Shown here: positions 1,213 to 58,501 of the stretch, piece by piece
Position numbering within the stretch: position 1 is the first letter of the stretch
Layout: each line of letters opens with the position of its first letter
IMG/VR virus record: IMGVR_UViG_3300045015_000053
Origin: a virus
Lineage: Duplodnaviria; Caudoviricetes
DNA: 64,000 nucleotides
Direction: 5' to 3' (one strand)
Position numbers and translations under genes: made by a program
The notes under the pieces: model-generated
What the model was told of the DNA's origin: nothing
What the model saw: only the letters and a program-made list of their open reading frames with translations
Databases searched by the model: none

Positions 1213-1869
1213 GTGGACAACAACGCTATCGGCATCCCTCTGGCGTTTTTCGCCATGATGGTCGTGCTGTGCTGGTGGGTCGTCGCCGCCAAAGGCTATT
1301 GGCTGATGAAGGTCTTGCTGGTCGCGTCCGCGCTGCTGGTGAGTCTGCTTCTGTGGAAGTCGGTCAGCAGTTTGGGCGGATGGGCGACCAACGAGAAACT
1401 CCCTGAGAAGTTCTTGGTTCACTGGGTCGTGATCCAAGAACCAGATCCGGGCGGCAAACACCCCGGTTACATCATGATCTGGGCCACCGAGCTTTCCGAC
1501 GACACGACCGTCAAGAAAGACGAGAGCAGGTTCAAGATCACCGCCGATCACCCCGGCGAACCTCGCGTCTACAAACTGCCCTACAGCCGGCCACTACACG
1601 ACCAGATGAACAAGGTTCAGGGTCGTCTCAAACAGGGCAAGCCGGTCGTCGGGAAACGCAGAGGCGTGGAAGACGGAGAAGATGGTGACGGCGACGGGGA
1701 TGAAGATGGGGACGGTGACGGGGATGGCAAGGGCGGTAAGGGCAAGGGTAAAGGAAAAGGCAAGGGCAAGGGCGGTACTGGTTCGGGCGGCGGGTTCTCG
1801 AAGCCCACCGAGTTCATGTTCTATGATCAGCCGCCGCCGAAGATGCCTGAGAAGATTCCGGGCAAGTGA
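1213..1869 (+). CDS. Two-TM membrane protein with (DG)n/(GK)n low-complexity tail
   Basis: RBS GGAGG before GTG, two hydrophobic helices, Asp-Gly and Gly-Lys runs. Confidence 0.75.
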   Translation: MDNNAIGIPLAFFAMMVVLCWWVVAAKGYWLMKVLLVASALLVSLLLWKSVSSLGGWATNEKLPEKFLVHWVVIQEPDPGGKHPGYIMIWATELSDDTTVKKDESRFKITADHPGEPRVYKLPYSRPLHDQMNKVQGRLKQGKPVVGKRRGVEDGEDGDGDGDEDGDGDGDGKGGKGKGKGKGKGKGGTGSGGGFSKPTEFMFYDQPPPKMPEKIPGK

Positions 1870-1905
1870 AACAAAAACGCCGACCACATGGTCGGCGTTT
1901 TTGTT
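1870..1905. terminator. Intrinsic terminator (17-bp perfect inverted repeat)
   Basis: AACAAAAACGCCGACCA-CA-TGGTCGGCGTTTTTGTT directly after the stop codon. Confidence 0.8.
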
Positions 1906-1908
1906 GCC

Positions 1909-1914
1909 TATATA
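1909..1914 (+). promoter_or_regulatory. Candidate late promoter TATATA
   Basis: Lies 4 nt before ATG 1919. Similar TA(T/A/C)ATA boxes precede other M-x-F leader genes. Confidence 0.5.
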
Positions 1915-1918
1915 CGGT

Positions 1919-2644
1919 ATGAACTTTAGAGTATGGCTTGAGTCGCAATTGCCGTCGCCTTTGGACTCCTTCAGGAGCAAGGACGAGTTTATTGCGTTTT
2001 TGAAGAAGTCTTCGGCGGCGGATCGTCAGGGCATTCTGGATTGGGCCGAGAAGATCAATGCCGCCAACTACGCGAAGAAGGTGGGGACCAACAATCCCGC
2101 AGTCCTCTACCACGGCTCGCCTCAAGATAAGATCGCCAAAGACGGGTTCCAGATCACGATGGGCCAAAGAAGTTCCGGGTTCATGGGCGCGACGTACTCG
2201 GTCCAGAACCAGGGCATCTTCATGACGGACTCGAAGGAGATGGCGAACTACTTCGGGAGCAATCGGAGCGACGGCGGCAGGAACTTCCGCGTCTACACGG
2301 CCTATGCCAACCTAGATCACCTGTTTGATGTGACGCTCGGCATGCCGCTTCAGTACCGCAAACTCGGCCTCAAGCTCATCAACGACTACTACGGCAAGAA
2401 GAAGACGAAGTTGGCCGAGTCGGACATCTGGTGGTTATTGGACCGGCCGGATTTTGTGAACCTGATCAAGCAGGGCGGTTACAACGCCGTCAAGTTCAAA
2501 GAAGACTACTCGATCAGGAAACAGAGCAGCAAGGCGGCGTTCAGCTATCTTGTTTTCGACACAGCACATCTGGTGGTCAAGAGTCCCCAAAACGATTTGC
2601 TCAACAGCGTGGACTCCATTTGGGAGTACATCTCCGGTCATTAG
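1919..2644 (+). CDS. ADP-ribosyltransferase-fold protein (ART-PolyVal-like), possibly virion-packaged
   Basis: MNFRVWLE leader; motifs VLYHGS, GIFMTDS..MANYFG, GYNAV, YLVFD. Start 1919 preferred over the track start 1682. Confidence 0.6.
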   Translation: MNFRVWLESQLPSPLDSFRSKDEFIAFLKKSSAADRQGILDWAEKINAANYAKKVGTNNPAVLYHGSPQDKIAKDGFQITMGQRSSGFMGATYSVQNQGIFMTDSKEMANYFGSNRSDGGRNFRVYTAYANLDHLFDVTLGMPLQYRKLGLKLINDYYGKKKTKLAESDIWWLLDRPDFVNLIKQGGYNAVKFKEDYSIRKQSSKAAFSYLVFDTAHLVVKSPQNDLLNSVDSIWEYISGH

Positions 2645-4984: not shown

Positions 4985-5680
4985 ATGGGTGCTTTAGCTC
5001 AGAAGAAGGTGTTGGTACTGAACAAGCACAGCGTTGCTGTCGGCGTGGTGTCGCTGCAACGCGCCATCATCATGTTGTTCTCATTCGACCCGAAAACCCT
5101 CAAGCCGAAGGCCGAGATCATTGACGAGGGGTGCCAGCCGTGGACCTGGGAGGAGTGGGCGTTGTTGCGCCCGGAGGACAACGAGGACGCAATAAACTCC
5201 TGTCAGGGTCGGTTCAAGATTCCTGAGATCATCAAGCTGTCGAAGTACGACAAGATGCCACAGCATCAGATCCACTTCAGCCGCCGGATGATCCACAAGC
5301 GTGACGGTAGCCAGTGCATGTACTGTCGCGCCCGGCCGGGAACCGAGGAACTGACCATCGACCACATCATTCCACGCTCGAAGGGTGGCTTGACGACGTG
5401 GGAGAACTGTGTCCTCGCCTGCGTGCCGTGCAACAGCAACAAGGCCAACCGGATGCCCGACCGCACGACCGTCGTTGACCACGTCAAGGACGATCACGGC
5501 AAGCTGAAGGAAGTACACGTTCCGGCCTTCACCGTGTACTTCAACGACAAGACCCGGAAGACCATCCGGCAGCCGAAGAAGCCCAACTTCGAGGTCTTCC
5601 GTGGGGAGATCCCATACAAGTCTTGGGCGCAGTGGCTCAACGTGGCCTACTGGAACGTCGAGCTAGAAAACGACAACTAA
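4985..5680 (+). CDS. HNH endonuclease (McrA-like)
   Basis: CMYC..LTIDHIIPRSKGGLTTWENCVLACVPCNSNK. Confidence 0.9.
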   Translation: MGALAQKKVLVLNKHSVAVGVVSLQRAIIMLFSFDPKTLKPKAEIIDEGCQPWTWEEWALLRPEDNEDAINSCQGRFKIPEIIKLSKYDKMPQHQIHFSRRMIHKRDGSQCMYCRARPGTEELTIDHIIPRSKGGLTTWENCVLACVPCNSNKANRMPDRTTVVDHVKDDHGKLKEVHVPAFTVYFNDKTRKTIRQPKKPNFEVFRGEIPYKSWAQWLNVAYWNVELENDN

Positions 5681-5695
5681 GAACAAGGGGAGCAA

Positions 5696-6586
5696 TTAGT
5701 CGTGGTGCTTTTGATTGGCCGCACTCAGGTATCCGTCGTCTCTCTCGGCCCGGCTTCTGAAGCGGTGCTTGGTCAAGAACTTGCCGAACTTGGCGAGCCG
5801 TCCACGCGGGTTCGGGACGTGAGCCTGTCCGAGACTCGGCAGTAGGTGTTCGAGTTCCTTGAAGTCGTGCCATTTTTTACCGTCGAACCCGGCGATCCAA
5901 ACGCTCGTGTCATCTCGAATGACGCCCTTCGCGGCGAGCTTGGCGAGATCCTCAAACTTCACGTCCACCTTACGCCCGAATGCGTTGATGTAAGCCGCGT
6001 TTTTGCCGGCGAATTCCTCGGCACCCAAAGTCGGTGTTGTAGCCGCGACGTACTGGTGCATGTCATCTTGCACGTCTTTGTGTTTGTACGGCAGCCAATC
6101 GTCGTATCCGTACCGCTTTACCATCGTGTCGGGTTTGATCCACCTTTTGGCGACCGCGTCAGCGAACTCTTTAGACCCGACGAATTTGTAGGCGTGTCCG
6201 TCGAGGTAGGCCCACCACACCGTCTTGTCGTTCGCCACGCCCTTGCTGACCCGGCTGAAAGGGAGGTACTTCTTGGCGTCTTTGATCTGGTTCCAGTTTT
6301 GCTCACCTTGTACCCAAATCATGTCTTCGGGATGAACTTGGTTGATCCGGTACAACTGAACGATTTTGATGCCGTCCATTTGCACCGGGTTGACGCCGTC
6401 TTCTCGCGGCTTGTCGGGCCGGTACAACCAGAACATGCCGCGCTGGTCTTTTCGCTTGCCGCGTTCGCCGAGGCCACCCTTGATCGCGCCGTAAGCAGCA
6501 CCGCCCAACGCGGCGGCGGCGAGTGCCGTACCGACGATTTCGTCCAGTTGCCGCTTCTCTTTCCCCCATTTCACGAATGATTCCAT
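5696..6586 (-). CDS. Late protein with three GYF_2-like repeats
   Basis: MESFVKW leader, Ala/Gly-rich segment, repeated I.(P)D(T).VW..G...W units; TATATA at 6621-6626. Confidence 0.65.
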   Translation of the reverse strand: MESFVKWGKEKRQLDEIVGTALAAAALGGAAYGAIKGGLGERGKRKDQRGMFWLYRPDKPREDGVNPVQMDGIKIVQLYRINQVHPEDMIWVQGEQNWNQIKDAKKYLPFSRVSKGVANDKTVWWAYLDGHAYKFVGSKEFADAVAKRWIKPDTMVKRYGYDDWLPYKHKDVQDDMHQYVAATTPTLGAEEFAGKNAAYINAFGRKVDVKFEDLAKLAAKGVIRDDTSVWIAGFDGKKWHDFKELEHLLPSLGQAHVPNPRGRLAKFGKFLTKHRFRSRAERDDGYLSAANQKHHD

Positions 6587-6669
6587 TTTGCCTCTTTGCA
6601 GAACAACACAAGCTCGCTAGTATATAGTCCGAAGGGTCACATTCTGCCCTGTTTCAACCGGAGGCAATC

Positions 6670-7448
6670 ATGTCGAAGAAAAACCAATCAGCGAGGTGGC
6701 TTTGACCCTGTAAAGGGTCAGGAAACCCATTCCCAGGCTGCCTCCTGGCTTTGACCACGCCAACGAAATCATCCTCGAAGTCCTTTATGGCGAGGGTGGT
6801 ACTGACTCGAAACTCTTCGTCACCGATCTCGGCGATCTCTACGTCAAATATGCCGCCCGCAAGGGTCTGGCGTGTGAGCTTTTGACCGAAGACGACGGAC
6901 ACGTCACCTTCAAGATCAAAGGCAAGAAAGCCGCGTGGCACTTCCGTCACGAGGCAGGCAAGCACTGCGTTCAGCGGGTTCCCCCGACCGAGCGTAACGG
7001 CCGGCGTCAAACGAGCTTCGTGAACGTCGCTATCCTGCCGATCCTTCCTGAGTACACGAAAGTGACACTCAGGGACAACGACCTCGAAGAGAAGTTCCAG
7101 ACTGGGCGTCAAAAGGCCGGGGGCCAAAACGCGAACAAAGTCGCTTCCGCCGTGCGACTGAAGCACAAGCCGACCGGCCTCTGCGTGTTCATCAACGGCC
7201 GCGATCAGGGGCAGAACCGCGAGGAAGCTCGCCGCATCCTGACGGCCAAAGTGAACCAGCAGAAGATCGAGAAGGAACGCGCGGCCGAGGTCGGGATGAG
7301 GGAAGACTTCCTGAAGAATCGCGGACGCGGGGACAAGATCAGGACGTACAACTTCATCATCAACGAGGTGACGGACCACCGACTGGATCGTTCTTCCAAG
7401 AACATCAAGGCGGTGATGAAGGGCGATCTGGACGAAGTCATCGGATAA
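6670..7448 (+). CDS. prfA: Class I peptide chain release factor (RF1-like, lacks domain 1), joined by two +1 frameshifts at 6700-6706 and 6749-6755
   Basis: GGQ motif (KAGGQNANK), RF1-type VQRVPPTE loop, IRTYNF. RBS GGAGG plus ATG 6670 reaches the RF frame only via two CTT-TGA-C sites; predicted 258 aa. Confidence 0.85.
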
Positions 7449-7465
7449 TCGAGCCGAACAAGACA

Positions 7466-7503
7466 GAAGGCACGAGTTATAATGACTCGTGTCTTCTTTT
7501 TTT
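7466..7503 (+). terminator. Intrinsic terminator
   Basis: AGAAGGCACGAGTTA/TGACTCGTGTCTTCT stem followed by a T run. Confidence 0.65.
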
Positions 7504-7513
7504 TGAGGTCGAT

Positions 7514-7880: not shown

Positions 7881-8591
7881 ATGCCTACCAAAACCGAATA
7901 CCAGAAACGCAAACAAAACAATCTCTGTTTACGTTGTGGTAAAACGCCATTGGATTCCAAAAACGTTTGTCAAAAGTGCATAGACAAGGCGATGGCGAAG
8001 TATGCCGCAAAAAAACAAGCAAAAGTTTGTGTAAATTGTAGTCGGCCCGCTCCAAATGGAGCCAGATGTGTCGAGTGCGCAAAGGTCCACAAAAAAGTTG
8101 CAGATCGAAGACGGATTACAAAAAGAAAAACATCAATTTGTTTGATTTGCCCGACTCAAACAAATGGCTCTGCCTATTGTGATTCTTGTTTGGCGAAGAA
8201 TAGGGCCAAGTGTCGCCGGAAGCGAGAATCGGGATTGTGTCGCAATTGTTCCAAAAAGGCTATTCCGGGGAAAGCAAGATGTGAAGAATGCACGCAGACA
8301 AATCGCGAGAGCATTCTCAGACTCAGGGATAAAGTGTTCGCTGCGTATGGAGGGGCAAGATGTAATTGTTGTGGAGAAACGACAGTAGAGTTTTTGGCAT
8401 TAGATCACATAAACAACGATGGTGCCGAACACAGACGAAGTTTGCGTGAGAACAGCGTCTATCGTTGGGTTAGTAAAAACGGGTTCCCTGCCGGTTTTCA
8501 GGTACTGTGCCACAATTGCAATTGGGGCAAACATATTTGTGGTGGAGTCTGCCCACATCAGAGGAAAATTCATGTCGAACATCATCAATGA
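7881..8591 (+). mobile_element. Free-standing HNH (homing-type) endonuclease gene with tandem Zn-ribbons
   Basis: AT-rich island; repeated CxxC..C units; C-terminal CNCCGE..LALDHINNDG..VLCHNCN. Confidence 0.75.
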
Positions 8592-10683
8592 TCTGGTCCA
8601 GAAGAAACTTGCTCACCCACCTGCGTGGCTTAGTTCCAATACCCATTATCTAACGATGATGGGTTCGGTGGCCTACGGGGTGAGCAGCGACACGTCCGAC
8701 ATGGACCTGTACGGCTTTTGTCTGCCGCCGAAGGAAATCGTCTTCCCGCACTTGTCGGGGGAGATTTTCGGTTTCGGCACGCAGAAGAAGCGGTTCAACC
8801 AGTGGCAGCAGCACCACATCAAAGACCCGTGTGCGATGCAAGGGAAGGGACGGCAGTATGACCTCACGGTCTACAACGTGGTGGATTACTTCAATCTGTT
8901 GATGCAGAACAACCCCAACATGATTGACAGTATTTTCACGCCCGACAACTGCGTGTTGCACATCACGCGGATCGGCACGATGGTTCGCGAGAAGCGACGG
9001 ATGTTCCTCCACAAGAAGTGTTGGCACACCTTCAAGGGGTACGCCTACGCTCAGATGAAGAAGATCCGCAACAAGGAGCGTGAGTCTTCGTCGCGGCGCG
9101 ACCTGATCGAGAAGTACGGGTACGACTGCTATCTTGATTCCGAAACTGAATTTCTTACTGAAGCCGGCTGGAAGAAGTACGACGATGTGGAGGCCGACGA
9201 TTCTCTGGCAGTGGTAGATCCGTCAACGGGGAAGATCGGATGGGAAAATTACACCGAACGCATCGACAAGCCTTTCTCCGGTCCCATGTACGTCGTAGAA
9301 CCGGCGATGAGCAGGTGTGTGGTTACGCCCAATCACCACATGCTCGTTTCACCCGCACGTCGCTCGGAGGCGACTAACTTTTCATACCGTTATTTCGAGG
9401 ATAAAGCGGACTGGAATTTGGTTCCTTTCTCAACCCTTATGACTGGATCGAGGTCGTGGTTTCACACACGTCGCCGTGTGGAAGGCAACTGCTTCGACTA
9501 TTCCGGTGTCACCGACGAGTATTTGGTTTTGGCCGGTCTGTATATTGCCGAAGGCACCATCAACTTCAGGGATGGCAAGGTCAAGACCGCAAGACTGACC
9601 CAGACGCCGAATGGGAAGCAAGAGTTTTTCGAGATGGCTGATCGTATTGCTAGTGCCTTCGACATGAAGCGATACGACTACGACAAGGAAACAGTCTGGA
9701 CCGTTGAGCGTGCTACCGCCGAAAAACTCTATACGGATTTCGGACATGGTTCTGGTAGCAAGAGGCTCCCTCTGTGGTGTTACAAGTTGTCCGAACGACA
9801 GGCTTCCATTCTTTGGAAGAATGCCTGTCTCGGAGACGGAACTCCTACGCCAAACGGCGAAGTCTACTACACCAGTAACGCTGCACTTGCTGGCGATGTG
9901 CAGGCTATGTTAACATGCGCCGGCGTACTGTGTTCTGTACGCGGGCCTTACAGTTACGAGCGAAACGATGAATGCTTCGGTAACTGTGACATGTATCAGG
10001 TGTATCGGCCTTCGGACCAGTACGCCTACTCCTGCGTAGATTTCAAGAACAGGATTCAGAAATCCGATGATGAGGCGACTGAGGTGACGGGCGATGTTCG
10101 TGTTGATGGCCTCCGTCATTTCACAGAAGATGACGACCCCAAAACAAGCTGGCCCATCAAGGAACGTATTGTTCAAGAAGAACGCATCGTGTGTTTCCAA
10201 GTCCCATCGGGAACTTTGATCACTCGAAGTAAGGGCCGAGTCGCCCTGCATGGCAATACGAAGTTCGCATACCACCTTGTTCGTCTGATGAACGAAGTGG
10301 AACAGATCATGGTCGAACACGACCTCGATCTGATGCGGAACCGCGAACAGTTGAAGCAGATCCGCGCCGGGTGCTGGACCGAGGAGCAACTTGAGGACTA
10401 CTTCGCCAAGAAGGAAGTATCCCTCGAAGAGACGTACAACAAGAGCGATCTCCGTTGGGGACCGGACGAGCCGGCCATCAAGGAACTGCTCCTGAACGTG
10501 CTGGAAGAACACTACGGCAACCTCGACAAGTGCGTCATCCGTCAGGACGCGGTCGTGACTGCCCTCCGCAACGTGATCGGCGCGGCTGATGAAGCCCGCC
10601 GCGTACTGGAGCAGATCACATATGAAGAACCTGCTGAGGCGGGCGGCGAACAGTCTGAACAGGCTGTGGCACCGACTGAGTGA
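8572..10683 (+). CDS. Nucleotidyltransferase (pol-beta superfamily, phage type) containing an intein
   Basis: GSVAYGVSSDTSDMD and NNPNMID motifs; extein junction KYGYD/TKFAYH; RBS GAGGAA before ATG 8572. Confidence 0.85.
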   Translation: MSNIINDLVQKKLAHPPAWLSSNTHYLTMMGSVAYGVSSDTSDMDLYGFCLPPKEIVFPHLSGEIFGFGTQKKRFNQWQQHHIKDPCAMQGKGRQYDLTVYNVVDYFNLLMQNNPNMIDSIFTPDNCVLHITRIGTMVREKRRMFLHKKCWHTFKGYAYAQMKKIRNKERESSSRRDLIEKYGYDCYLDSETEFLTEAGWKKYDDVEADDSLAVVDPSTGKIGWENYTERIDKPFSGPMYVVEPAMSRCVVTPNHHMLVSPARRSEATNFSYRYFEDKADWNLVPFSTLMTGSRSWFHTRRRVEGNCFDYSGVTDEYLVLAGLYIAEGTINFRDGKVKTARLTQTPNGKQEFFEMADRIASAFDMKRYDYDKETVWTVERATAEKLYTDFGHGSGSKRLPLWCYKLSERQASILWKNACLGDGTPTPNGEVYYTSNAALAGDVQAMLTCAGVLCSVRGPYSYERNDECFGNCDMYQVYRPSDQYAYSCVDFKNRIQKSDDEATEVTGDVRVDGLRHFTEDDDPKTSWPIKERIVQEERIVCFQVPSGTLITRSKGRVALHGNTKFAYHLVRLMNEVEQIMVEHDLDLMRNREQLKQIRAGCWTEEQLEDYFAKKEVSLEETYNKSDLRWGPDEPAIKELLLNVLEEHYGNLDKCVIRQDAVVTALRNVIGAADEARRVLEQITYEEPAEAGGEQSEQAVAPTE
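9127..10257 (+). mobile_element. Intein (377 aa) with LAGLIDADG-type endonuclease
   Basis: Starts CYLDSETEFLT, block B VTPNHHM, ends ALHGN before Thr; LAGLYIAEG and CLGDG motifs; lower GC. Confidence 0.9.
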
Positions 10684-29201: not shown

Positions 29202-29555
29202 ATGACACGCGACATGAAGGCCACGATGCCTTACATCCACTACTCCAACCCGATCTGGGACAAACCTCGGACGATCTGGGGCGCGGCCGAAGAAGGGCTT
29301 CAGTACGAGTACAGCGACCGGCTTTGGCAGTGGGACCGGGCGAAGGCAGAAGACGCGAGCAAGAAGGCGGCGAAGAAGGCGGGCAAGGCGTTTACGCCCA
29401 AGTACATTCAGGAGTTCTTGAAGGTGCTGTTGGGCGAGCCGGTGGAACTGCTGCACATCAAGGGCGGCGTCAACACCAACGGCTACACCTATTACATCTA
29501 CGGGTTCCGGGTCAAGGAAAAGGCCGTCAAGAAGAAGAAGGTGTCAAGTGAATGA
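29202..29555 (+). CDS. Hypothetical protein
   Basis: Coupled ORF with phage codon style. Confidence 0.65.
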   Translation: MTRDMKATMPYIHYSNPIWDKPRTIWGAAEEGLQYEYSDRLWQWDRAKAEDASKKAAKKAGKAFTPKYIQEFLKVLLGEPVELLHIKGGVNTNGYTYYIYGFRVKEKAVKKKKVSSE

Positions 29556-30156
29556 CATCCCGCTCGCCAAGCCGAAACTCTTCGAGTTCACGAAGGTTCC
29601 GGCCGTCATTCTCGCGGCCAAGACGCCCGTCACCGAGGCGTTGTTCGTCAAGATCGTCGGGAAGGCGAACGTCGAACACTTGCAATGGGTGATCGGGAAC
29701 TACTGGGAACAGAAGATTTCCCGGCTCGACACCGACGCTCTCTACGAGGAACTTCGCATCCTGTTCCACAGTAAACGCCGTGCGAAGCGGACGATGAACG
29801 AGACGCGGGACGAGATCGCCTCCCGCGTGATCGAGTGCGACTGGGGCCGCATTTGGAAGACCTTCAAGCAGAAGGTCGAACGGTGCTTGTGGAAACACCC
29901 GAAGACGAAAGGACTCGTGGCACAGACGATCCAGCTACACGGCGCGGACCTTGTCATCGAAGAAAACAGCACTTGCGAGGTGCATTTCGAGGGCAAGGGT
30001 TACACGGTGGACATCGAGGGCCGACGCAGCATCGTGGGCAACTTGACTTCCGTCAACCGTGACAAGACCCGCGTGATGAACGTCAAAAACAGGTTCGTGG
30101 GCAGGACGTTTTGGCAGTGTCAGGGACGCAGCCACGTCGTCTACCAAGAAAAGTAG
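29548..30156 (+). CDS. Hypothetical protein
   Basis: Coupled ORF ending TAG at the repeat motif. Confidence 0.7.
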   Translation: MNDIPLAKPKLFEFTKVPAVILAAKTPVTEALFVKIVGKANVEHLQWVIGNYWEQKISRLDTDALYEELRILFHSKRRAKRTMNETRDEIASRVIECDWGRIWKTFKQKVERCLWKHPKTKGLVAQTIQLHGADLVIEENSTCEVHFEGKGYTVDIEGRRSIVGNLTSVNRDKTRVMNVKNRFVGRTFWQCQGRSHVVYQEK

Positions 30157-30234
30157 CGCAATCTCGGAGACACAATCTCCGAGAGCTTGTTGGTGGTGGG
30201 TACGAATCCAAAACCTTGCAAAACTGGTGCTGAC

Positions 30235-30921
30235 ATGGGCGTCGATGCGAAGATCTATCTGCCGGGCAACGTGCGTCTGAGTACGGTCGTGGAAGTGGTC
30301 GCACGGTTGCTGGACGCGCCGGCGGTCTACAAGAAGCTCGAACCGGAGAAGCCCAAATCAACTTCGTGGCATGCCTCGATTCCCGAAGGCGTGGTAGAGT
30401 ACCGCAACACCGTGCAGGGTCTGGTGGGCGTCACCATCGGCCAGATCAACCCCGCCCTTCGCGGCAGCGAACACTTCCCGTTCAGCTACCACTATGAGTT
30501 CGGCGGCTATAAGGGCATGGGCGCGTGTCGGGGCATGATCCTTCGTTCGTGGGACTGCAACATTGCGATCCTGCGTGGCCTCGCCGACTTCTTCGGCGGC
30601 ATCGTGGACCATCAAGACTGCGACGACGAGGAGCGTGACTACGTCGTCGCGGACAAGCCCGACAACATGAACTGCCCGGAAGATGGTCGCGCGTGGCAGT
30701 TCCTGCAAGAACGTATCATGGCCGTCGAACCGCTCACACAGGAGCAGATCGACGCTTGCGACCAGTACGCCGCTTACCACGAGAACGTCGGCGAACGCAC
30801 CAAGCGGCTCGCAATGAAGAAGAAGACTTCTGCGTCCATCGCCGTCGAAACACTGGCGAAGGAGTTGGGCAAGTCGGTCGATTTCGTTACAGCCCTTCTT
30901 AGGAACGGGGGTGCGATGTGA
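30235..30921 (+). CDS. Hypothetical protein
   Basis: ATG 30235; in frame with the upstream TAG. Confidence 0.7.
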   Translation: MGVDAKIYLPGNVRLSTVVEVVARLLDAPAVYKKLEPEKPKSTSWHASIPEGVVEYRNTVQGLVGVTIGQINPALRGSEHFPFSYHYEFGGYKGMGACRGMILRSWDCNIAILRGLADFFGGIVDHQDCDDEERDYVVADKPDNMNCPEDGRAWQFLQERIMAVEPLTQEQIDACDQYAAYHENVGERTKRLAMKKKTSASIAVETLAKELGKSVDFVTALLRNGGAM

Positions 30922-50124: not shown

Positions 50125-51051
50125 TAGTGTTCTTGTTCTGGACGACGTTATCTATGTTGTCTTTCAGATGGAGGAGGAATTCTTTCTGCTTGCCGTTTTT
50201 GATCGCCAAGTTCAAAGAAGCAAGAAGCTCCAGGGCGTCTTTGCTGTATTGTTCTTTGTTTTTCATCGCGTGTTTCAAGACTTCGCCCAGATTGTCTTCG
50301 GTAGCCAACTCCCCGGTCAGCCTCGCGTAGTCCCTCTTCAAAGCGGCCAGACGGACACCGATCTCTTCAAAATCGAAATAATAGTTCTCCGTATCCGAAG
50401 CCTTCTTCCCTCCGAGGACGCCGCCGGCCGCGAAGCTCATCATCCTGTCCTGGGTGGAGTGTGACAGTTCGTGAGCCAGAGTGTGGATTTTGCTAACGTC
50501 GGACACAACGCAGTATTTCTGCGATTTGCCGTTTACTGTCACAACGCCACAGAATCCGTTGACCTGTTTCTTCCCCGCGTTAGAGTTCCATCCGGCCTTT
50601 TGGAAAATTCGTTGGGATCAATTCCGACAACAACTGGCACCGGCTTGTCCAGTAGTTTCGCGTCCATCGCCGTCCCGTCGAGCCGAAAGGTTTGTTTGGA
50701 CGCGCGGTCTACCGAAGCCTTGTATAGCTTGTCGTTACCATAAAGGGGTTGGATTATTTGTGATGGGGTAATCATCTTGATGTTGTTTCTGCCGATGTTG
50801 ACATGCGGGTACTCTTTCTTCAAAGCGACAAGTATGTAATCGACTTCTTGCTCCCCGCTTTTCACCATTTGTTGTTTCGGTTCGGCAGATTGTTGTGCTT
50901 GAGGTGCGTGAGGTGACAGAGACATACCCAAACCCGTCGCTCCCAGTGTCGCAAGTCTGGCAGCGTTTTTGAAAAAACCCTCTTCAAGCGTGAAGTACTC
51001 TAAAGTAATTTCCGCGTTGACGAATTTGCTGAACTCTTTGGCACCTATCAC
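50105..51051 (-). CDS. HExxH metallopeptidase-like protein split by a 1-nt frame break near 50604-50607
   Basis: Two track ORFs join into GIDPNEFFQKAGW..TLAHELSH if one base is added; AT-rich. Confidence 0.55.
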
Positions 51052-54000
51052 TCTTCTCCTCCCGGCGGTCGATACCCAGGCTGGCCCTTCAGCTTCACGA
51101 TGTGCAGTTGGTCCATAGCCCGCGTGTAGGCGACGTAGCGTGCGTTCTCCTCTTGGAGTTTGTCGGCTTCCTTCGTGGCTCGCGGGTGCGGGAACTGGTC
51201 GTCACGCAGAATGTAGACGCGAGAGAACTCCAAGCCCTTCGACTTGTGAGCCGTCGTCAACACCACCGGGTGTTCCTTCTTCACCTTCTCGTTGAATGCT
51301 CTCAGGTCGGCCTCGTTGTCCTGAACGTCGAAACCGCCCAGGCGAGCCTTGAGCCACTTCTTGAAGTCTTTGACGGTCGGCATCGGTTTGGCCGCGACCG
51401 CCCGCATCATCGCGTCGTGCGCCCGGTCGTCCATCTCCTCCACGTCACGCGACATCCCGGTGAACGCCGCCAGTGCGGAGTAAAGAGCTTCCGAGGTGGC
51501 GTTCATTTCCTGTAGGTACGCCTTCTTGGAGTTCATCGAACTGAACCGCTCGTTTTCTTTCTTCTGGTACTCTTCGAGCTTCACGCCGAGGTTCGGCCGA
51601 CCGCCCGCTCGCGGGTGCGGGATCGCCGGGGAATCGTCCCTCATCTTGGCCCCCTTCAAGACCTTGCCGATGTGACGCATCAATTCGTTTGACACGTCGC
51701 GACCCACGATGATGAACGGCACGCCGTCGCCCAACATCTTCAACGCGGCCTGAACCAGCGGTTCGTTGGTACGGGCGATGAACGCCGTTTCCGGCATTTT
51801 CGGCCCGCCCTTTTTCGAGTCCTCGTGTTCCTTCTTGAGCGTGGTGAAGACCTCGCCATATTCCTTGTCTTGGTTTGTGACTTCGCCACCACCGCCGTTC
51901 GGGTACTTGCTCTCACTGTGTTTGAGGCCGGTAACGTGGCCCATGTTGTTGACGTGGTCGAGAATGCCCTTCCGCGAGCGGTAGTTCGTCGTCAGCGTGT
52001 GTTCCGTGTCCTTGTCGCCCGAAAGCTCTTTCAGGGTCCGGCCGAGGCTGTGGAAGGCGTCACCGTCAGCGCCACGGAAGCGGTAAATGGCTTGGTTCGG
52101 GTCGCCTACCGCCACGATCTTCGCGCCGGCACCGTGCAACTTCTCCAGCATCAGCTTTTGGCACGGGTTGAAGTCCTGCACCTCGTCGGCGAGGACCACG
52201 TCGTAGTGCGGCCAGTGCATGTCGTGGGCGTTGATCGCGGCGAACCAGATGTCGTCCGAGAAGTCGCGCATGCTGCCCAGGTCGTATTCCATGCCCTTGA
52301 AACTGAGGGTCTGCGTCGTTCCCTTCGGCAGACTAGCCTTCAGCAGCCACTCGGCTGCCTCAGCGATCTCGTCCTTAAAGTTCTTGCCCATGAAGTCGAA
52401 GCCGTAGACCTTCTTCAGAGCGGCCAGAACTTCCGTGACCATGCTGCTCGAACGGTACTTCCTGATGCGTTCTTTGATTTCGGCCAGCCCGGTATCGAGG
52501 TCGTAACCCTTGAACAGCTTTTCGAGTTCGGCCTTGACGTGGTTGCCGTCTTTTCGCGGATCGACGCCGTAAGCTTTCGCCAAGTCAGCGACCTTCTGCG
52601 AGACTTCCTTGAACATATAGCGGATGGAGTGTGCGCAGCTTTTCGCGGCCGTCGTTGAGTATTCCCCAATCGGCATCTTCTCGATGATGGCGTCGGCGGT
52701 CGCGTCTTCAACGATGCCTAGTTTCTTCAGCACCTCGTTGAACTGCGATCCGTCCACGATTTCGCCCATTTTGCTTCGCGGCATCGGCGACTTTTCTTCC
52801 TCGTCCTCGTCTTCCGAAGCCTTGTTCCGCTTCTTGTTGAGTACCTCGATCATCCGCTCGGTCTGGTCGATCCGGCTGACATTCTCGTTCGACTTCAGCA
52901 AGTTGCCGAGGAAGCCGTTCGTGGTGCGAACGTCAACCCAGGAGGTTGGGAACTTCTCTTGAGCCTCGACCTTGTTCTTGGTGTTGAACACCAGATACAG
53001 CCAGCGTTCGCCCGGCTTGCCGTATTTCCACGCCAAGTGCTTCAACATCGTCGTGTTGTGTGTTACGACGCAGTTTTCTGTGACGTACAAGTTGTCTTTC
53101 GCGTCAACCGCAATGCATTGACACGGTTTTTTGCCAATCGAAGTGATTGACTTGATGACCCTAGACGGCTGATACTTTGTTTTGGGAGTGTACTTCTCCT
53201 GTTTCCTTTTCAAAGAAAAGGGATTGCCAGAGATTTTGATGTACACTCGGTAGCAAGGCTTGCCTGATTTTTTGACCCCTTTGTATGTGTAACTCGTTTT
53301 CTTGTGGGTGATTTTCCCGGTTCCGCCCAGTGACTCAACGAGGAATTTAATGTCTTTGGCAAGACGATACGAAGCGGTAGGGTAGAAAATCGTGTGGGTT
53401 CCGACTTCTCCATCTGTGTCGAGAAGTCCGCTCAACACTTTCGCTCTTGTCTCAACTGTATTGAATTTGTAAATGTCTGGAACAAATTTATTGTCGGACC
53501 CCATTCTCCACAAGCCTAGTTTTTTGATCTCTGCCACAATTTCGTTCTTCCGGCCTTTGATGCCGCTTGAAATACGATAATCGCAGCCATATCCTGTCGG
53601 CCGGCTTTTCAAAGCAGGAGGCAGTAACCGATCAACGCTTTCGACTATTTCTTTGTCTTCCGATGAGTAGGACACGCAGCCGGTTCTGAAACTCCCGTCA
53701 CCCAGAAGCACGCCCATTAAATACGGATCAATGATTGTCAGTTGCGAAGCAAACTCGACGTTTTCGACCATTGGAACATAGTGTTTTGGTTGTTTTCTGT
53801 AGAGCAAATCGCCAGCAATTTCTTTGGTAGTTAGGACTTTGCCATAAGAGAAAAGAGGTATTCCCTTTTGTTGACAGTAGACTCTTTCTCGTTTGCATTC
53901 TGTCAGCCAAAGGTGATCTTCAGAGCATTCCACAATGGACCCGTCCATAAATCCGACTTCGACCACTTCTTGCATCCCTTGAGGGAAGACTCCAATAACT

Positions 54001-55019
54001 TTGTGTGGTTTGCCGTCACGTCCAATGACCAGATTATTGACTTTAATGTCGCCCATCCTGATCCAGCCTTTTGGGGTCAAGATTTTGGAATCAAGTGGTT
54101 GAGCTTTGCCCGACCCGGCCAGAGCGTTGATCATCATGTGATCCTGGCTCTTGCTGGACATCATCTGCTCGAACCGCGCGTCGATCCGTCGCTGTTCGTC
54201 CGACAATTTCTCGTGTTCGAGGACGTGCTTTTTCTTGTCCGCGTCGTTCGGCTTGCCCTTCGACAACTTGCCCTCGACCAAATCGTGCAACTCGGCCAGA
54301 CTCGGCGCGGAGTAGATGCTCTTGCCGTCATCCTGTTTGACCGACTGCACCACGTTCGGGAGGTCGGACTTGGTAGTCGCGGCCATACGCTGGCCGCCGA
54401 ACGTCCAGATCTCCCAAGCGCCGTTCTCGGCCTCGACAACGCCCACGTCTTCGTCGGCCTTGATCGTTTCGATGTCCTGCTTGGTTTTGGCGTAGATCCA
54501 CTTCTGGCCCTTAGCAGGTGCGGCCGATGGCTTTGCTTGAGTTTGAGCTTGTTGTGGTTGTTGCGGCTGTGTGGCTCTGTGGGTGGCGGCGACTTGTCGG
54601 AGAGCTTCGATGGAGTCGGCCATTACCGGGGTGTTCCCGTCGCGGACGGACTTGACGTAGTTCGCCAGTTCTTTTTCAGACACGAAGGCGCGGGCGTTCG
54701 TGTCGAGGTGGACGACTTCCCACGTCCCTTCACGGGGTTTTGAAACGCCCACGTCATCGCCGGCCTTCAATTGACCGACCGGCTTGATGATTCGACTGTA
54801 GATCCAGCGACCCGTGGGCTGTTTGTTGGTTTCCAAGAGGCACCTTGAGAGGATTTCGTCCTGAATTTCCAGATAAAATGCGTCACCCAGGTCGCTGCGG
54901 TGGTAGTTTTCAGCGATCCATTTTAGGTCGGAAACTGACGTTTCGCTGCCGAAATAGAAGTTCTTGTAGAACCGCGAGCGGCATTCTGAAACGAGCCAGT
55001 TTTTGAAGTCGAGTTTCAT
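51048..55019 (-). CDS. UvrD/Rep superfamily 1 helicase with intein and N-terminal extension
   Basis: ALAGSGK/TT, LVFN, DEVQD, VGDPNQAIYRFRGA, NYRS, ARTN, TAHKSKGLEF, YVAYTRA. Confidence 0.9.
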   Translation of the reverse strand: MKLDFKNWLVSECRSRFYKNFYFGSETSVSDLKWIAENYHRSDLGDAFYLEIQDEILSRCLLETNKQPTGRWIYSRIIKPVGQLKAGDDVGVSKPREGTWEVVHLDTNARAFVSEKELANYVKSVRDGNTPVMADSIEALRQVAATHRATQPQQPQQAQTQAKPSAAPAKGQKWIYAKTKQDIETIKADEDVGVVEAENGAWEIWTFGGQRMAATTKSDLPNVVQSVKQDDGKSIYSAPSLAELHDLVEGKLSKGKPNDADKKKHVLEHEKLSDEQRRIDARFEQMMSSKSQDHMMINALAGSGKAQPLDSKILTPKGWIRMGDIKVNNLVIGRDGKPHKVIGVFPQGMQEVVEVGFMDGSIVECSEDHLWLTECKRERVYCQQKGIPLFSYGKVLTTKEIAGDLLYRKQPKHYVPMVENVEFASQLTIIDPYLMGVLLGDGSFRTGCVSYSSEDKEIVESVDRLLPPALKSRPTGYGCDYRISSGIKGRKNEIVAEIKKLGLWRMGSDNKFVPDIYKFNTVETRAKVLSGLLDTDGEVGTHTIFYPTASYRLAKDIKFLVESLGGTGKITHKKTSYTYKGVKKSGKPCYRVYIKISGNPFSLKRKQEKYTPKTKYQPSRVIKSITSIGKKPCQCIAVDAKDNLYVTENCVVTHNTTMLKHLAWKYGKPGERWLYLVFNTKNKVEAQEKFPTSWVDVRTTNGFLGNLLKSNENVSRIDQTERMIEVLNKKRNKASEDEDEEEKSPMPRSKMGEIVDGSQFNEVLKKLGIVEDATADAIIEKMPIGEYSTTAAKSCAHSIRYMFKEVSQKVADLAKAYGVDPRKDGNHVKAELEKLFKGYDLDTGLAEIKERIRKYRSSSMVTEVLAALKKVYGFDFMGKNFKDEIAEAAEWLLKASLPKGTTQTLSFKGMEYDLGSMRDFSDDIWFAAINAHDMHWPHYDVVLADEVQDFNPCQKLMLEKLHGAGAKIVAVGDPNQAIYRFRGADGDAFHSLGRTLKELSGDKDTEHTLTTNYRSRKGILDHVNNMGHVTGLKHSESKYPNGGGGEVTNQDKEYGEVFTTLKKEHEDSKKGGPKMPETAFIARTNEPLVQAALKMLGDGVPFIIVGRDVSNELMRHIGKVLKGAKMRDDSPAIPHPRAGGRPNLGVKLEEYQKKENERFSSMNSKKAYLQEMNATSEALYSALAAFTGMSRDVEEMDDRAHDAMMRAVAAKPMPTVKDFKKWLKARLGGFDVQDNEADLRAFNEKVKKEHPVVLTTAHKSKGLEFSRVYILRDDQFPHPRATKEADKLQEENARYVAYTRAMDQLHIVKLKGQPGYRPPGGEE
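53055..54104 (-). mobile_element. Intein (350 aa, Ala1 start) in Walker A, with LAGLIDADG endonuclease
   Basis: GK|AQPLDSKILT..CSEDHLW..GVLLGDG..SGLLDTDG..VTHN|TT; AT-rich. Confidence 0.92.
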
Positions 55020-55150
55020 GTTGTCCTTGTTCTGCTTTCCCATCACGGTTATGTAGTTACGCGGAACCGAACTCAAACTGGCAGTTTTTCGATCTCGGCA
55101 TTGTCACAATCGAGCGTTTCGGTTACGCTTTCTCGAAACGGAGGTTTACG

Positions 55151-58392: not shown

Positions 58393-58463
58393 CCACCTTT
58401 GGGCCAGTGGCTGGCCAGCGATCTCTAAAATCGCGCACATCGGTTCGATTCCGATAAGGTGGG
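58393..58463 (+). tRNA. tRNA with CUA anticodon (amber suppressor type), CCA not encoded
   Basis: Acceptor CCACCTT/AAGGTGG, U8, D stem GGCC/GGCC with GG, anticodon stem GCGAT/ATCGC, loop CT-CTA-AA, T arm ATCGG-TTCGATT-CCGAT. Confidence 0.9.
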
Positions 58464-58501
58464 CTGAATCTAAAACAAAATTTGCATTGGTCAGAACGAC
58501 A

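Follow-up and report, generated by a model that had tools for sequence, protein, structure and literature searches.

The closest described system is bacterial prfB, in which the signal SD-N3-CUU-UGA-C directs a +1 shift into the release factor frame, and in E. coli the prfB leader is about 25 codons long. Several +1 shifts within a gene are found at AAA-stop in Euplotes, genome-wide, the organism being a eukaryote whose code is reassigned. RECODE lists CUU-stop +1 cases for prfB only (PMC10885494), and a 2025 survey finds neither TAG as a gate in prfB nor any programmed shift in prfA (PMC12421855). Phages are also known to encode RF1 and RF2, and these genes have been listed with frameshifting unmentioned (PMC7162821; bioRxiv 10.1101/2021.08.26.457843). 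Our literature search yielded no report of tandem frameshifting in release factors encoded by phages; the doubled gate reported here is not described in the literature searched, where such shifts are tied to bacterial prfB alone.

The gene lies in a window of 64,000 nucleotides (the whole stretch of DNA analysed; IMG/VR record IMGVR_UViG_3300045015_000053) that is found in lake-water metagenomes and looks like part of a huge phage genome. The features of the release factor (RF) locus are as follows.

6660 to 6664, plus strand: Shine-Dalgarno (SD) sequence GGAGG, 5 nt ahead of the leader ATG at 6670.
6670 to 6705, plus strand: leader ORF0 of 11 codons, MSKKNQSARWL and then TGA.
6694 to 6706, plus strand: shift site 1, an SD-like GAGG, a 3-nt spacer TGG, and CTT TGA C.
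6703 to 6720, plus strand: hairpin TGACCCT-GTAA-AGGGTCA, beginning at the site 1 TGA, with arms at 6703-6709 and 6714-6720.
6704 to 6754, plus strand: middle segment ORF1 of 16 codons in the +1 frame, DPVKGQETHSQAASWL and then TGA.
6729 to 6731, plus strand: ATT in the RF frame, a rival non-canonical start with AGGA 5 nt upstream.
6742 to 6755, plus strand: shift site 2, CCTCC, a 3-nt spacer TGG, and CTT TGA C.
6753 to 7448, plus strand: RF body ORF2 in the second +1 frame, 231 aa, RF1-like domains 2-4.
6981 to 6989, plus strand: decoding tripeptide PPT, within VQRVPPTERNGRRQTSF (residues 77-79).
7119 to 7127, plus strand: catalytic GGQ (residues 123-125).
7465 to 7504, plus strand: strong intrinsic terminator 3' of the RF gene, a 15-pair stem followed by T7.

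Site 1 has the context GCG AGG TGG CTT TGA C (6691-6706), with CTT at 6700-6702 and TGA at 6703-6705, and the SD-like element that the initial annotation had read there is confirmed, at the prfB spacing. Site 2 (TGG CTT TGA C, 6746-6755; CTT 6749-6751, TGA 6752-6754) is identical to the corresponding 10-mer of site 1 but is without an SD-like element, the CCTCC being anti-SD sequence. The stop codon is followed by C at both sites (6706 and 6755), which is a weak termination context. The RF frame is open from GAC 6753 to TAA 7446-7448, and the predicted full product is of 258 aa (11+16+231). Upstream, this frame is shut by TAA 6711-6713 and open from 6714, and it contains no ATG, GTG or TTG before TTG 6882, well inside domain 2, which agrees with the earlier statement that no other start is obvious. 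The GGAGG, ATG 6670, both junctions, the RF frame, TAA 6711 and the stop at 7448 had likewise been named in the initial annotation, and all were recovered at the same positions. The heptamer CTTTGAC is not enriched by count across the whole window (8 found, 11.4 expected), and its signal lies in frame, position and conservation; the chance of a CTT-stop in the required frame within 30 codons is about 0.02, and it is seen in 66 of 71 homologous loci.

From this arrangement we consider it probable, at roughly 80%, that the factor would be made via two successive prfB-type +1 slips at CUU-UGA-C. Ribosomes would initiate at ATG 6670 behind the strong SD and after 11 codons would have CUU in the P site and UGA-C in the A site, where most would terminate. 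A fraction would re-pair the Leu-tRNA from CUU to UUU (+1), aided by the SD-like GAGG three bases upstream, and would decode 16 further codons to reach the second CUU-UGA-C, where a second +1 slip would give entry to the factor frame and the predicted 258-aa product. Each slip would compete with UGA termination, so that output would be the product of two slip probabilities, rising when UGA termination is slow. Because site 2 has CCTCC in place of an SD, the slip rate there may be low by E. coli rules. The sequence layout, its conservation, the coding signal of each frame and the identity of the protein are observed; that ribosomes actually slip, which factor is sensed, and that two gates have adaptive value are matters that we infer.

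Other routes into the RF frame were considered and rejected. The TTG inside CTTTGAC is not in the RF frame and is ruled out as a restart codon, and transcriptional slippage is ruled out by reasoning, the T run being only 3 bases. There is no Rfam family match anywhere in the window, and no sigma-70 consensus promoter is seen upstream of the RF gene. We note CTAGTATATAG at 6617-6627, about 45 nt upstream of the leader ATG and kept in the related loci L002 and L053, which may be the -10 region of a promoter for the RF gene; it occurs once in the window, which rules it out as a repeated promoter motif.

The RF body corresponds to the C-terminal half of Pfam PCRF plus the RF-1 domain (84 and 75 bits), and its NCBIfam scores are 205 bits for RF1, 160 for RF2, 45 for PrfH and 26 for ArfB. 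The RF1 scores are below the curated cut-offs (205.5 versus 400 bits for NF001859; 193.7 versus 423 for TIGR00019). Compared with RF2, the protein has PPT in place of SPF and 160 bits against a cut-off of 370; compared with PrfH, it has 45.1 bits against a cut-off of 166.65, and 44 bits with PrfH in the PDB. The RF1 model match begins at position 103 of 347, so domain 1 is absent, and alignments to solved RF1 structures begin at residue 86-110. Among sequence matches these structures rank first (T. maritima E = 5e-43, with the alignment beginning at residue 86), with RF2 lower, and an AlphaFold (AF2) model of the RF body (pLDDT 85) superposes on ribosome-bound RF1 in Foldseek with TM 0.78-0.81. 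The PPT is of the PxT form and aligns with PVT in VQRVPVTESGGRIHTST of T. maritima RF1, the decoding loop Q-R-V-P-P-T-E is retained, and in alignment A1 G123 and G124 are invariant and Q125 nearly so; the alignment to RF1 structures has D for the alpha5-tip E and Q for the H of GRIHTS. Because the Pfam, NCBIfam, PDB and fold searches agree, the predicted product is an RF1-like factor of domains 2-4 only, and not an RF1 equivalog; Pfam, NCBIfam, PDB and Foldseek thus bear out the earlier assignment to an RF1-type factor without domain 1. The alpha5-tip GGT had been put forward as an RF2-like mark, but the tip varies within the family and so is not diagnostic.

The frame breaks are not sequencing error. 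The stretch is present in several lake-water metagenome runs, none of them an RNA run, and contigs from runs other than the likely source have no indels at the sites.

X7: spans sites 1 and 2.
X8: spans site 1.
X9 (2019): spans sites 1 and 2 and has one substitution, at 6774.

Error is excluded because independent runs reproduce both sites and four diverged relatives keep the layout, and the doubt raised at the outset, that the sites might read CTTGAC with no extra T, is answered by independent contigs that carry both sites with no indel. A related proposal, that the gene is a decaying pseudogene or that its frame breaks are assembly errors, draws on the behavior of gene callers, which shorten the window gene to 188 aa with a TTG 6882 start and begin the closest homologues at an internal Met or at weak TTG codons. 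We regard it as extremely unlikely, given that independent runs have the same bases, that interruptions occur in dozens of diverged genomes and are always CTT-stop in the right frame, and that the RF body itself is unbroken, its catalytic and decoding residues being invariant and its fold confident. Since callers truncate such genes, phage release factors are under-called and mis-sized.

Four close relatives of the window gene have the same organization, and a fifth differs.

L002: 91% identity, two-site layout as in the window.
L063: 85% identity, two-site layout as in the window.
L051: 82% identity, two-site layout as in the window.
L053: 73% identity, on a 586-kb contig, two-site layout as in the window.
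L056: 72% identity, one uninterrupted 27-codon leader (= 11+16) and a single site.

The common layout is GGAGG-N5-ATG (the GGAGG and its 5-nt spacing are the same in L002, L051 and L053), MSK(K/H)N..ARWL, GAGG TGG CTT TGA C, a 16-codon middle segment, (C/T)TCC TGG CTT TGA C, and the RF body. Conserved paired CTT-TGA-C sites, which the initial annotation had proposed seeking in homologous phage genes, are found in L002, L051, L053 and L063, and a two-site layout recurs in many distant relatives. All five two-site members of the clade have 48 nt between the landing codon and the second CTT. Changes in the leaders of the relatives include synonymous ones (TCG/TCC, AAG/AAA, AAC/AAT), and 16 of 28 substitutions in the middle segment fall on third positions of the +1 frame; with leader and middle pooled the count is 23 of 41 (binomial p=0.002). 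Upstream of site 2 the translations of the RF frame, compared by eye, differ radically (RVRKPI, RGPTPM, TGPTPI). Gene order is also shared, with an HNH gene, an opposite-strand GYF_2-like gene and then the RF gene; in the window the first two occupy 4985-6586 (HNH endonuclease on the plus strand, the 296-aa GYF_2-like gene on the minus strand), and they are syntenic in L051, L053, L054 and L056.

These comparisons bear on an alternative in which the factor is made mainly by initiation in the RF frame at ATT 6729, with the leader and middle segment as upstream regulatory ORFs outside the protein. Bacteria do, if rarely, start at AUU (infC). The RF frame is free of stops here from 6714 onward, and the codon at this position is ATT in the window, L051 and L053 and ATG in L002, while L063 has an RF-frame ATG two codons beyond it; L002 and L063 thus each have an RF-frame ATG upstream of site 2. 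The ATT, however, is an automatic consequence of the middle frame, where the conserved His codon CAT is followed by T, and the relatives have no consistent SD ahead of this position. The RF-frame reading here is the variable one, whereas the middle frame has third-position bias, and ATT initiation leaves unexplained both the CTT-stop in the exact frame in 66 of 71 loci and the lack of any RF-frame start at most loci. We consider it highly unlikely as the main route, and recovery of MSKKNQSARWLDPVK.. at the N-terminus of the factor would contradict it. With its AGGA 5 nt upstream, ATT 6729 could nonetheless give some shift-independent product alongside the two successive slips that we favor.

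The hairpin at site 1 has a dG of -11.6 kcal/mol (z = -5.1) and holds the RF-frame stop TAA 6711-6713 in its loop. It is stable in 5 of 5 clade members (dG -9 to -12, z -2.3 to -5.5), with compensatory variants GACCCC/GGGGTC in L002, GACTCT/AGAGTC in L053 and GACCCG/CGGGTC in L063, and the 3' hairpin noted earlier at this site is therefore both present and maintained through compensatory changes. A ribosome with CUU in the P site must already have melted it. For site 2, a CCAGG/CCTGG hairpin containing CCTCC had been suggested. The elements themselves are present (CCAGG 6733-6737, CCTGG 6744-6748, CCTCC 6742-6746), as is TGACCCT/AGGGTCA, but the site 2 hairpin is not supported: it would be melted in a ribosome with CUU in the P site, and it is absent from L056. 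No stable stimulatory structure is seen 3' of site 2, with z about 0 in 4 of 5 clade members. In minimum free energy folds of the window, L051 and L053, GCUGCCUC before site 2 pairs with GAGGUGGC of site 1; in L002 the CCUCC region pairs with the leader ribosome binding site instead. A G-to-A change in L053 betters the site 1-site 2 pairing, which is a lead.

The protein database contains a large family of 210-290-aa RF1-like proteins, many of them on 200-670 kb contigs. We traced 71 distinct loci in IMG/VR, JGI metagenomes, MAG contigs, Logan/ENA assemblies and the 595-kb phage record LR756511.1, and these have the following organizations.

About 39 loci: a leader of ~18-27 codons with SD+ATG, then one CTT-stop +1 shift.
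About 27 loci: two shifts (counting L087 and L088, whose first site is GTT-TAG).
1 locus (L011): an in-frame TGA-C in place of the shift site.
4 loci (L075, L077, L080, L109): a plain SD+ATG start.

The initial annotation knew of no described double-site RF gene; the two sites of the window gene stand, and the architecture is not unique, being found at about 27 of the 71 loci. Interruption of the homologues holds for the 66 with a CTT-stop and not for L075, L077, L080 and L109, which are uninterrupted. Full-length phage RF1 and RF2 genes (L023-L049) have ordinary starts and no such site. Across the family the gate stops are TGA (46), TAG (34) and TAA (7), with C after the stop at 63 of 89 sites and TGT or TGG as the codon ahead of CTT at 53 of 89. 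Against a background of 11%, an SD-like element at the prfB spacing lies ahead of all 25 first sites in two-site genes, 15 of their 25 second sites and 16 of the 39 single ones. Distant two-site genes mix their stops, with TAA then TAG in L007 and TAA then TGA in LR756511.1. No link is seen across the family between decoding motif and gate stop codon, and genes with the PPT motif use all three (TGA 30, TAG 13, TAA 3).

Several individual loci are of interest in their own right. L009 and L010 encode near-identical RF proteins behind a TAA and a TAG gate, respectively, which shows rapid turnover of the gate stop codon. At L011:1460-1510 the RF frame runs from a GTG-started leader through an in-frame TGA-C (AGT TGA CTG), and this gate appears to be one of stop-codon readthrough and not frameshifting. 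L087:620-700 and L088:620-700 have GGGGG TTG GTT TAG C as the first gate, with GTT as the shift codon; in the related L082 and L090 that position reads CTT TAA C. L001:2921-2997, on the contig of L007, carries three CTT-stop heptamers within 75 nt, one per frame (CTT TAA T, CTT TGA G and CTT TAG C), the middle one ending a short ORF begun at an ATG that overlaps the first stop (TAATG).

In the tree a single clade (100/100 support) unites the short factors and excludes the full-length ones of phages, and one-site and two-site genes are interleaved within it, with at least 10-11 switches forced by well-supported branches; in the window's own clade L003, L004 and L056 have one site. The two window sites are 49 nt apart (3x16+1, or 3n+1), their flanks are alike at 17 of 28 bases (a hand count that includes the identical 10-mer), and L092 carries an evident duplicate, with KNRGCL|S twice. 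Tandem duplication of a cassette of 49 nt (3n+1) is the most likely origin of the two gates, and the duplicated cassettes of the initial annotation are plausible given this period and the L092 duplicate. When a tandemly duplicated 3n+1 segment contains a functional +1 site, the reading frame as a whole is unchanged, and we infer that second gates have been gained and lost through such duplications. Given how often one-site and two-site forms have switched, the second gate may be close to neutral.

The same observations invite the reading that both slips are needed and that the second gate has no regulatory purpose, being a tolerated by-product of the cassette duplication. This concerns purpose only and can be compatible with the two-slip explanation. 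The 49-nt spacing, the similar flanks, L092, the interleaving of forms and the one-site members of the window's clade, among which L056 has a single leader of the same total length, are all in keeping with it. Set against these are the full SD-like element at prfB spacing retained at 25 of 25 first sites, the persistence of the two-site form with exact spacing over 73-91% protein identity, and the covarying hairpin at site 1; the first-site SD, the exact spacing and the hairpin suggest upkeep by selection, and on balance we think a purposeless second gate somewhat unlikely.

What the two slips would respond to is a further question. The PPT motif predicts reading of UAA and UAG, in which case UGA gates would answer to host RF2 without prfB-style self-feedback. 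The occurrence of all three gate stops with one motif argues against a design tied to one factor, and the RF2-specific sensor with a squared response that was originally proposed is unproven, with the interchangeable use of TGA, TAG and TAA by the family gates and the missing SD at site 2 against it. TGA also ends 46 of the 77 coding-looking ORFs of the window, so that most of the phage's genes would fall outside the reach of a factor of purely RF1 type. A scenario that would join these observations, and which we consider improbable, is that the short factors decode all three stops and their gates act as self-feedback, with 3n+1 duplications tuning gate number and an mRNA duplex replacing SD:anti-SD pairing at site 2, where CCUCC would pair with the upstream GAGG or GGAGG at the same 3-nt spacing. 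The swapping of TGA, TAG and TAA gates with no change of decoding motif is compatible with this, as are key decoding residues that differ from those of both RF1 and RF2.

The window uses the standard code, and its 77 coding-looking ORFs end in TGA (46), TAA (23) and TAG (8). Stop-codon recoding is ruled out, no long gene needing TAG or TGA as sense, and the in-frame extensions past TAG stops are without coding signal. We note an ARAGORN tRNA at 58393-58464 (plus strand) with the amber-reading anticodon CUA and, by eye, normal acceptor, anticodon and T arms; the Rfam tRNA model does not report it at gathering score, and there is no TAG recoding in the window. At 29548-30921 (plus strand) an ORF ending at TAG 30154-30156 is followed by a same-frame coding-looking ORF to 30921. 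This is either a pair of neighboring genes or a single gene with TAG read through, and the merged ORF (29548-30918) has no Pfam match. Genes of the window include those for HNH, RlaP, a UvrD helicase with a LAGLIDADG insert, GP88, FolD, PRPP synthetase and a ClpX-like ATPase, among others. The RlaP-family nucleotidyltransferase (8419-10683, plus strand; 754 aa) matches the Pfam model only at residues 72-221 and may carry a large insertion, possibly an intein. RlaP is also downstream of the RF gene in L051, and no functional conclusion as to an RNA-repair context is drawn from this neighbor, the others being ordinary huge-phage auxiliary genes. The 1342-aa UvrD-type helicase (51051-55076, minus strand) has a LAGLIDADG endonuclease domain at residues 543-599, and the insert is probably an intein. 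An ORF at 1682-2641 (plus strand) matches ART-PolyVal (ADP-ribosyltransferase of polyvalent phage proteins) weakly, at 30.2 bits versus a cut-off of 31.2.

If the favored reading of two successive slips is correct, the prfB-type device would be widened to a separate, phage-borne RF1-like family that uses all three stops and is often doubled. The gene exists with one gate, with two, with an in-frame stop and with none, a natural series that could be used to ask how phages monitor or exploit host termination capacity, and the gates are candidate compact, stop-codon-specific sensing parts that are open to characterization.

Set beside the known systems, the locus shares with bacterial prfB a P-site CUU, an in-frame stop followed by C, an SD-like element 3 nt upstream (at site 1), a release factor in the +1 frame, and a short leader, here of 27 codons in total. 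It differs in having an RF1-like product, two sites in series, CCTCC for the SD at site 2, a place in a phage genome, and a phage family that is also gated by TAG and TAA. RF1 (prfA) provides the best sequence and fold match, with the GGQ, the Q-R-V-P-x-T-E loop and domains 2-4 in common, but the window protein is without domain 1, has PPT for PAT or PVT, and scores 205 bits against the 400-bit equivalog cut-off. PrfH and ArfB are likewise shortened class-I RF scaffolds with GGQ, to which its matches are weak, and unlike them it retains the stop-codon decoding loop. The RF1 and RF2 of huge or recoded phages are also phage-encoded termination factors on very large genomes; these are full length and have ordinary starts, whereas the window gene has neither property and the window shows no stop-codon recoding. 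Euplotes resembles it in having more than one +1 slip at stop codons within one gene, and differs in that here the slips would occur in a 5'-terminal cassette that is assisted by an SD and dedicated to one gene family of bacterial type.
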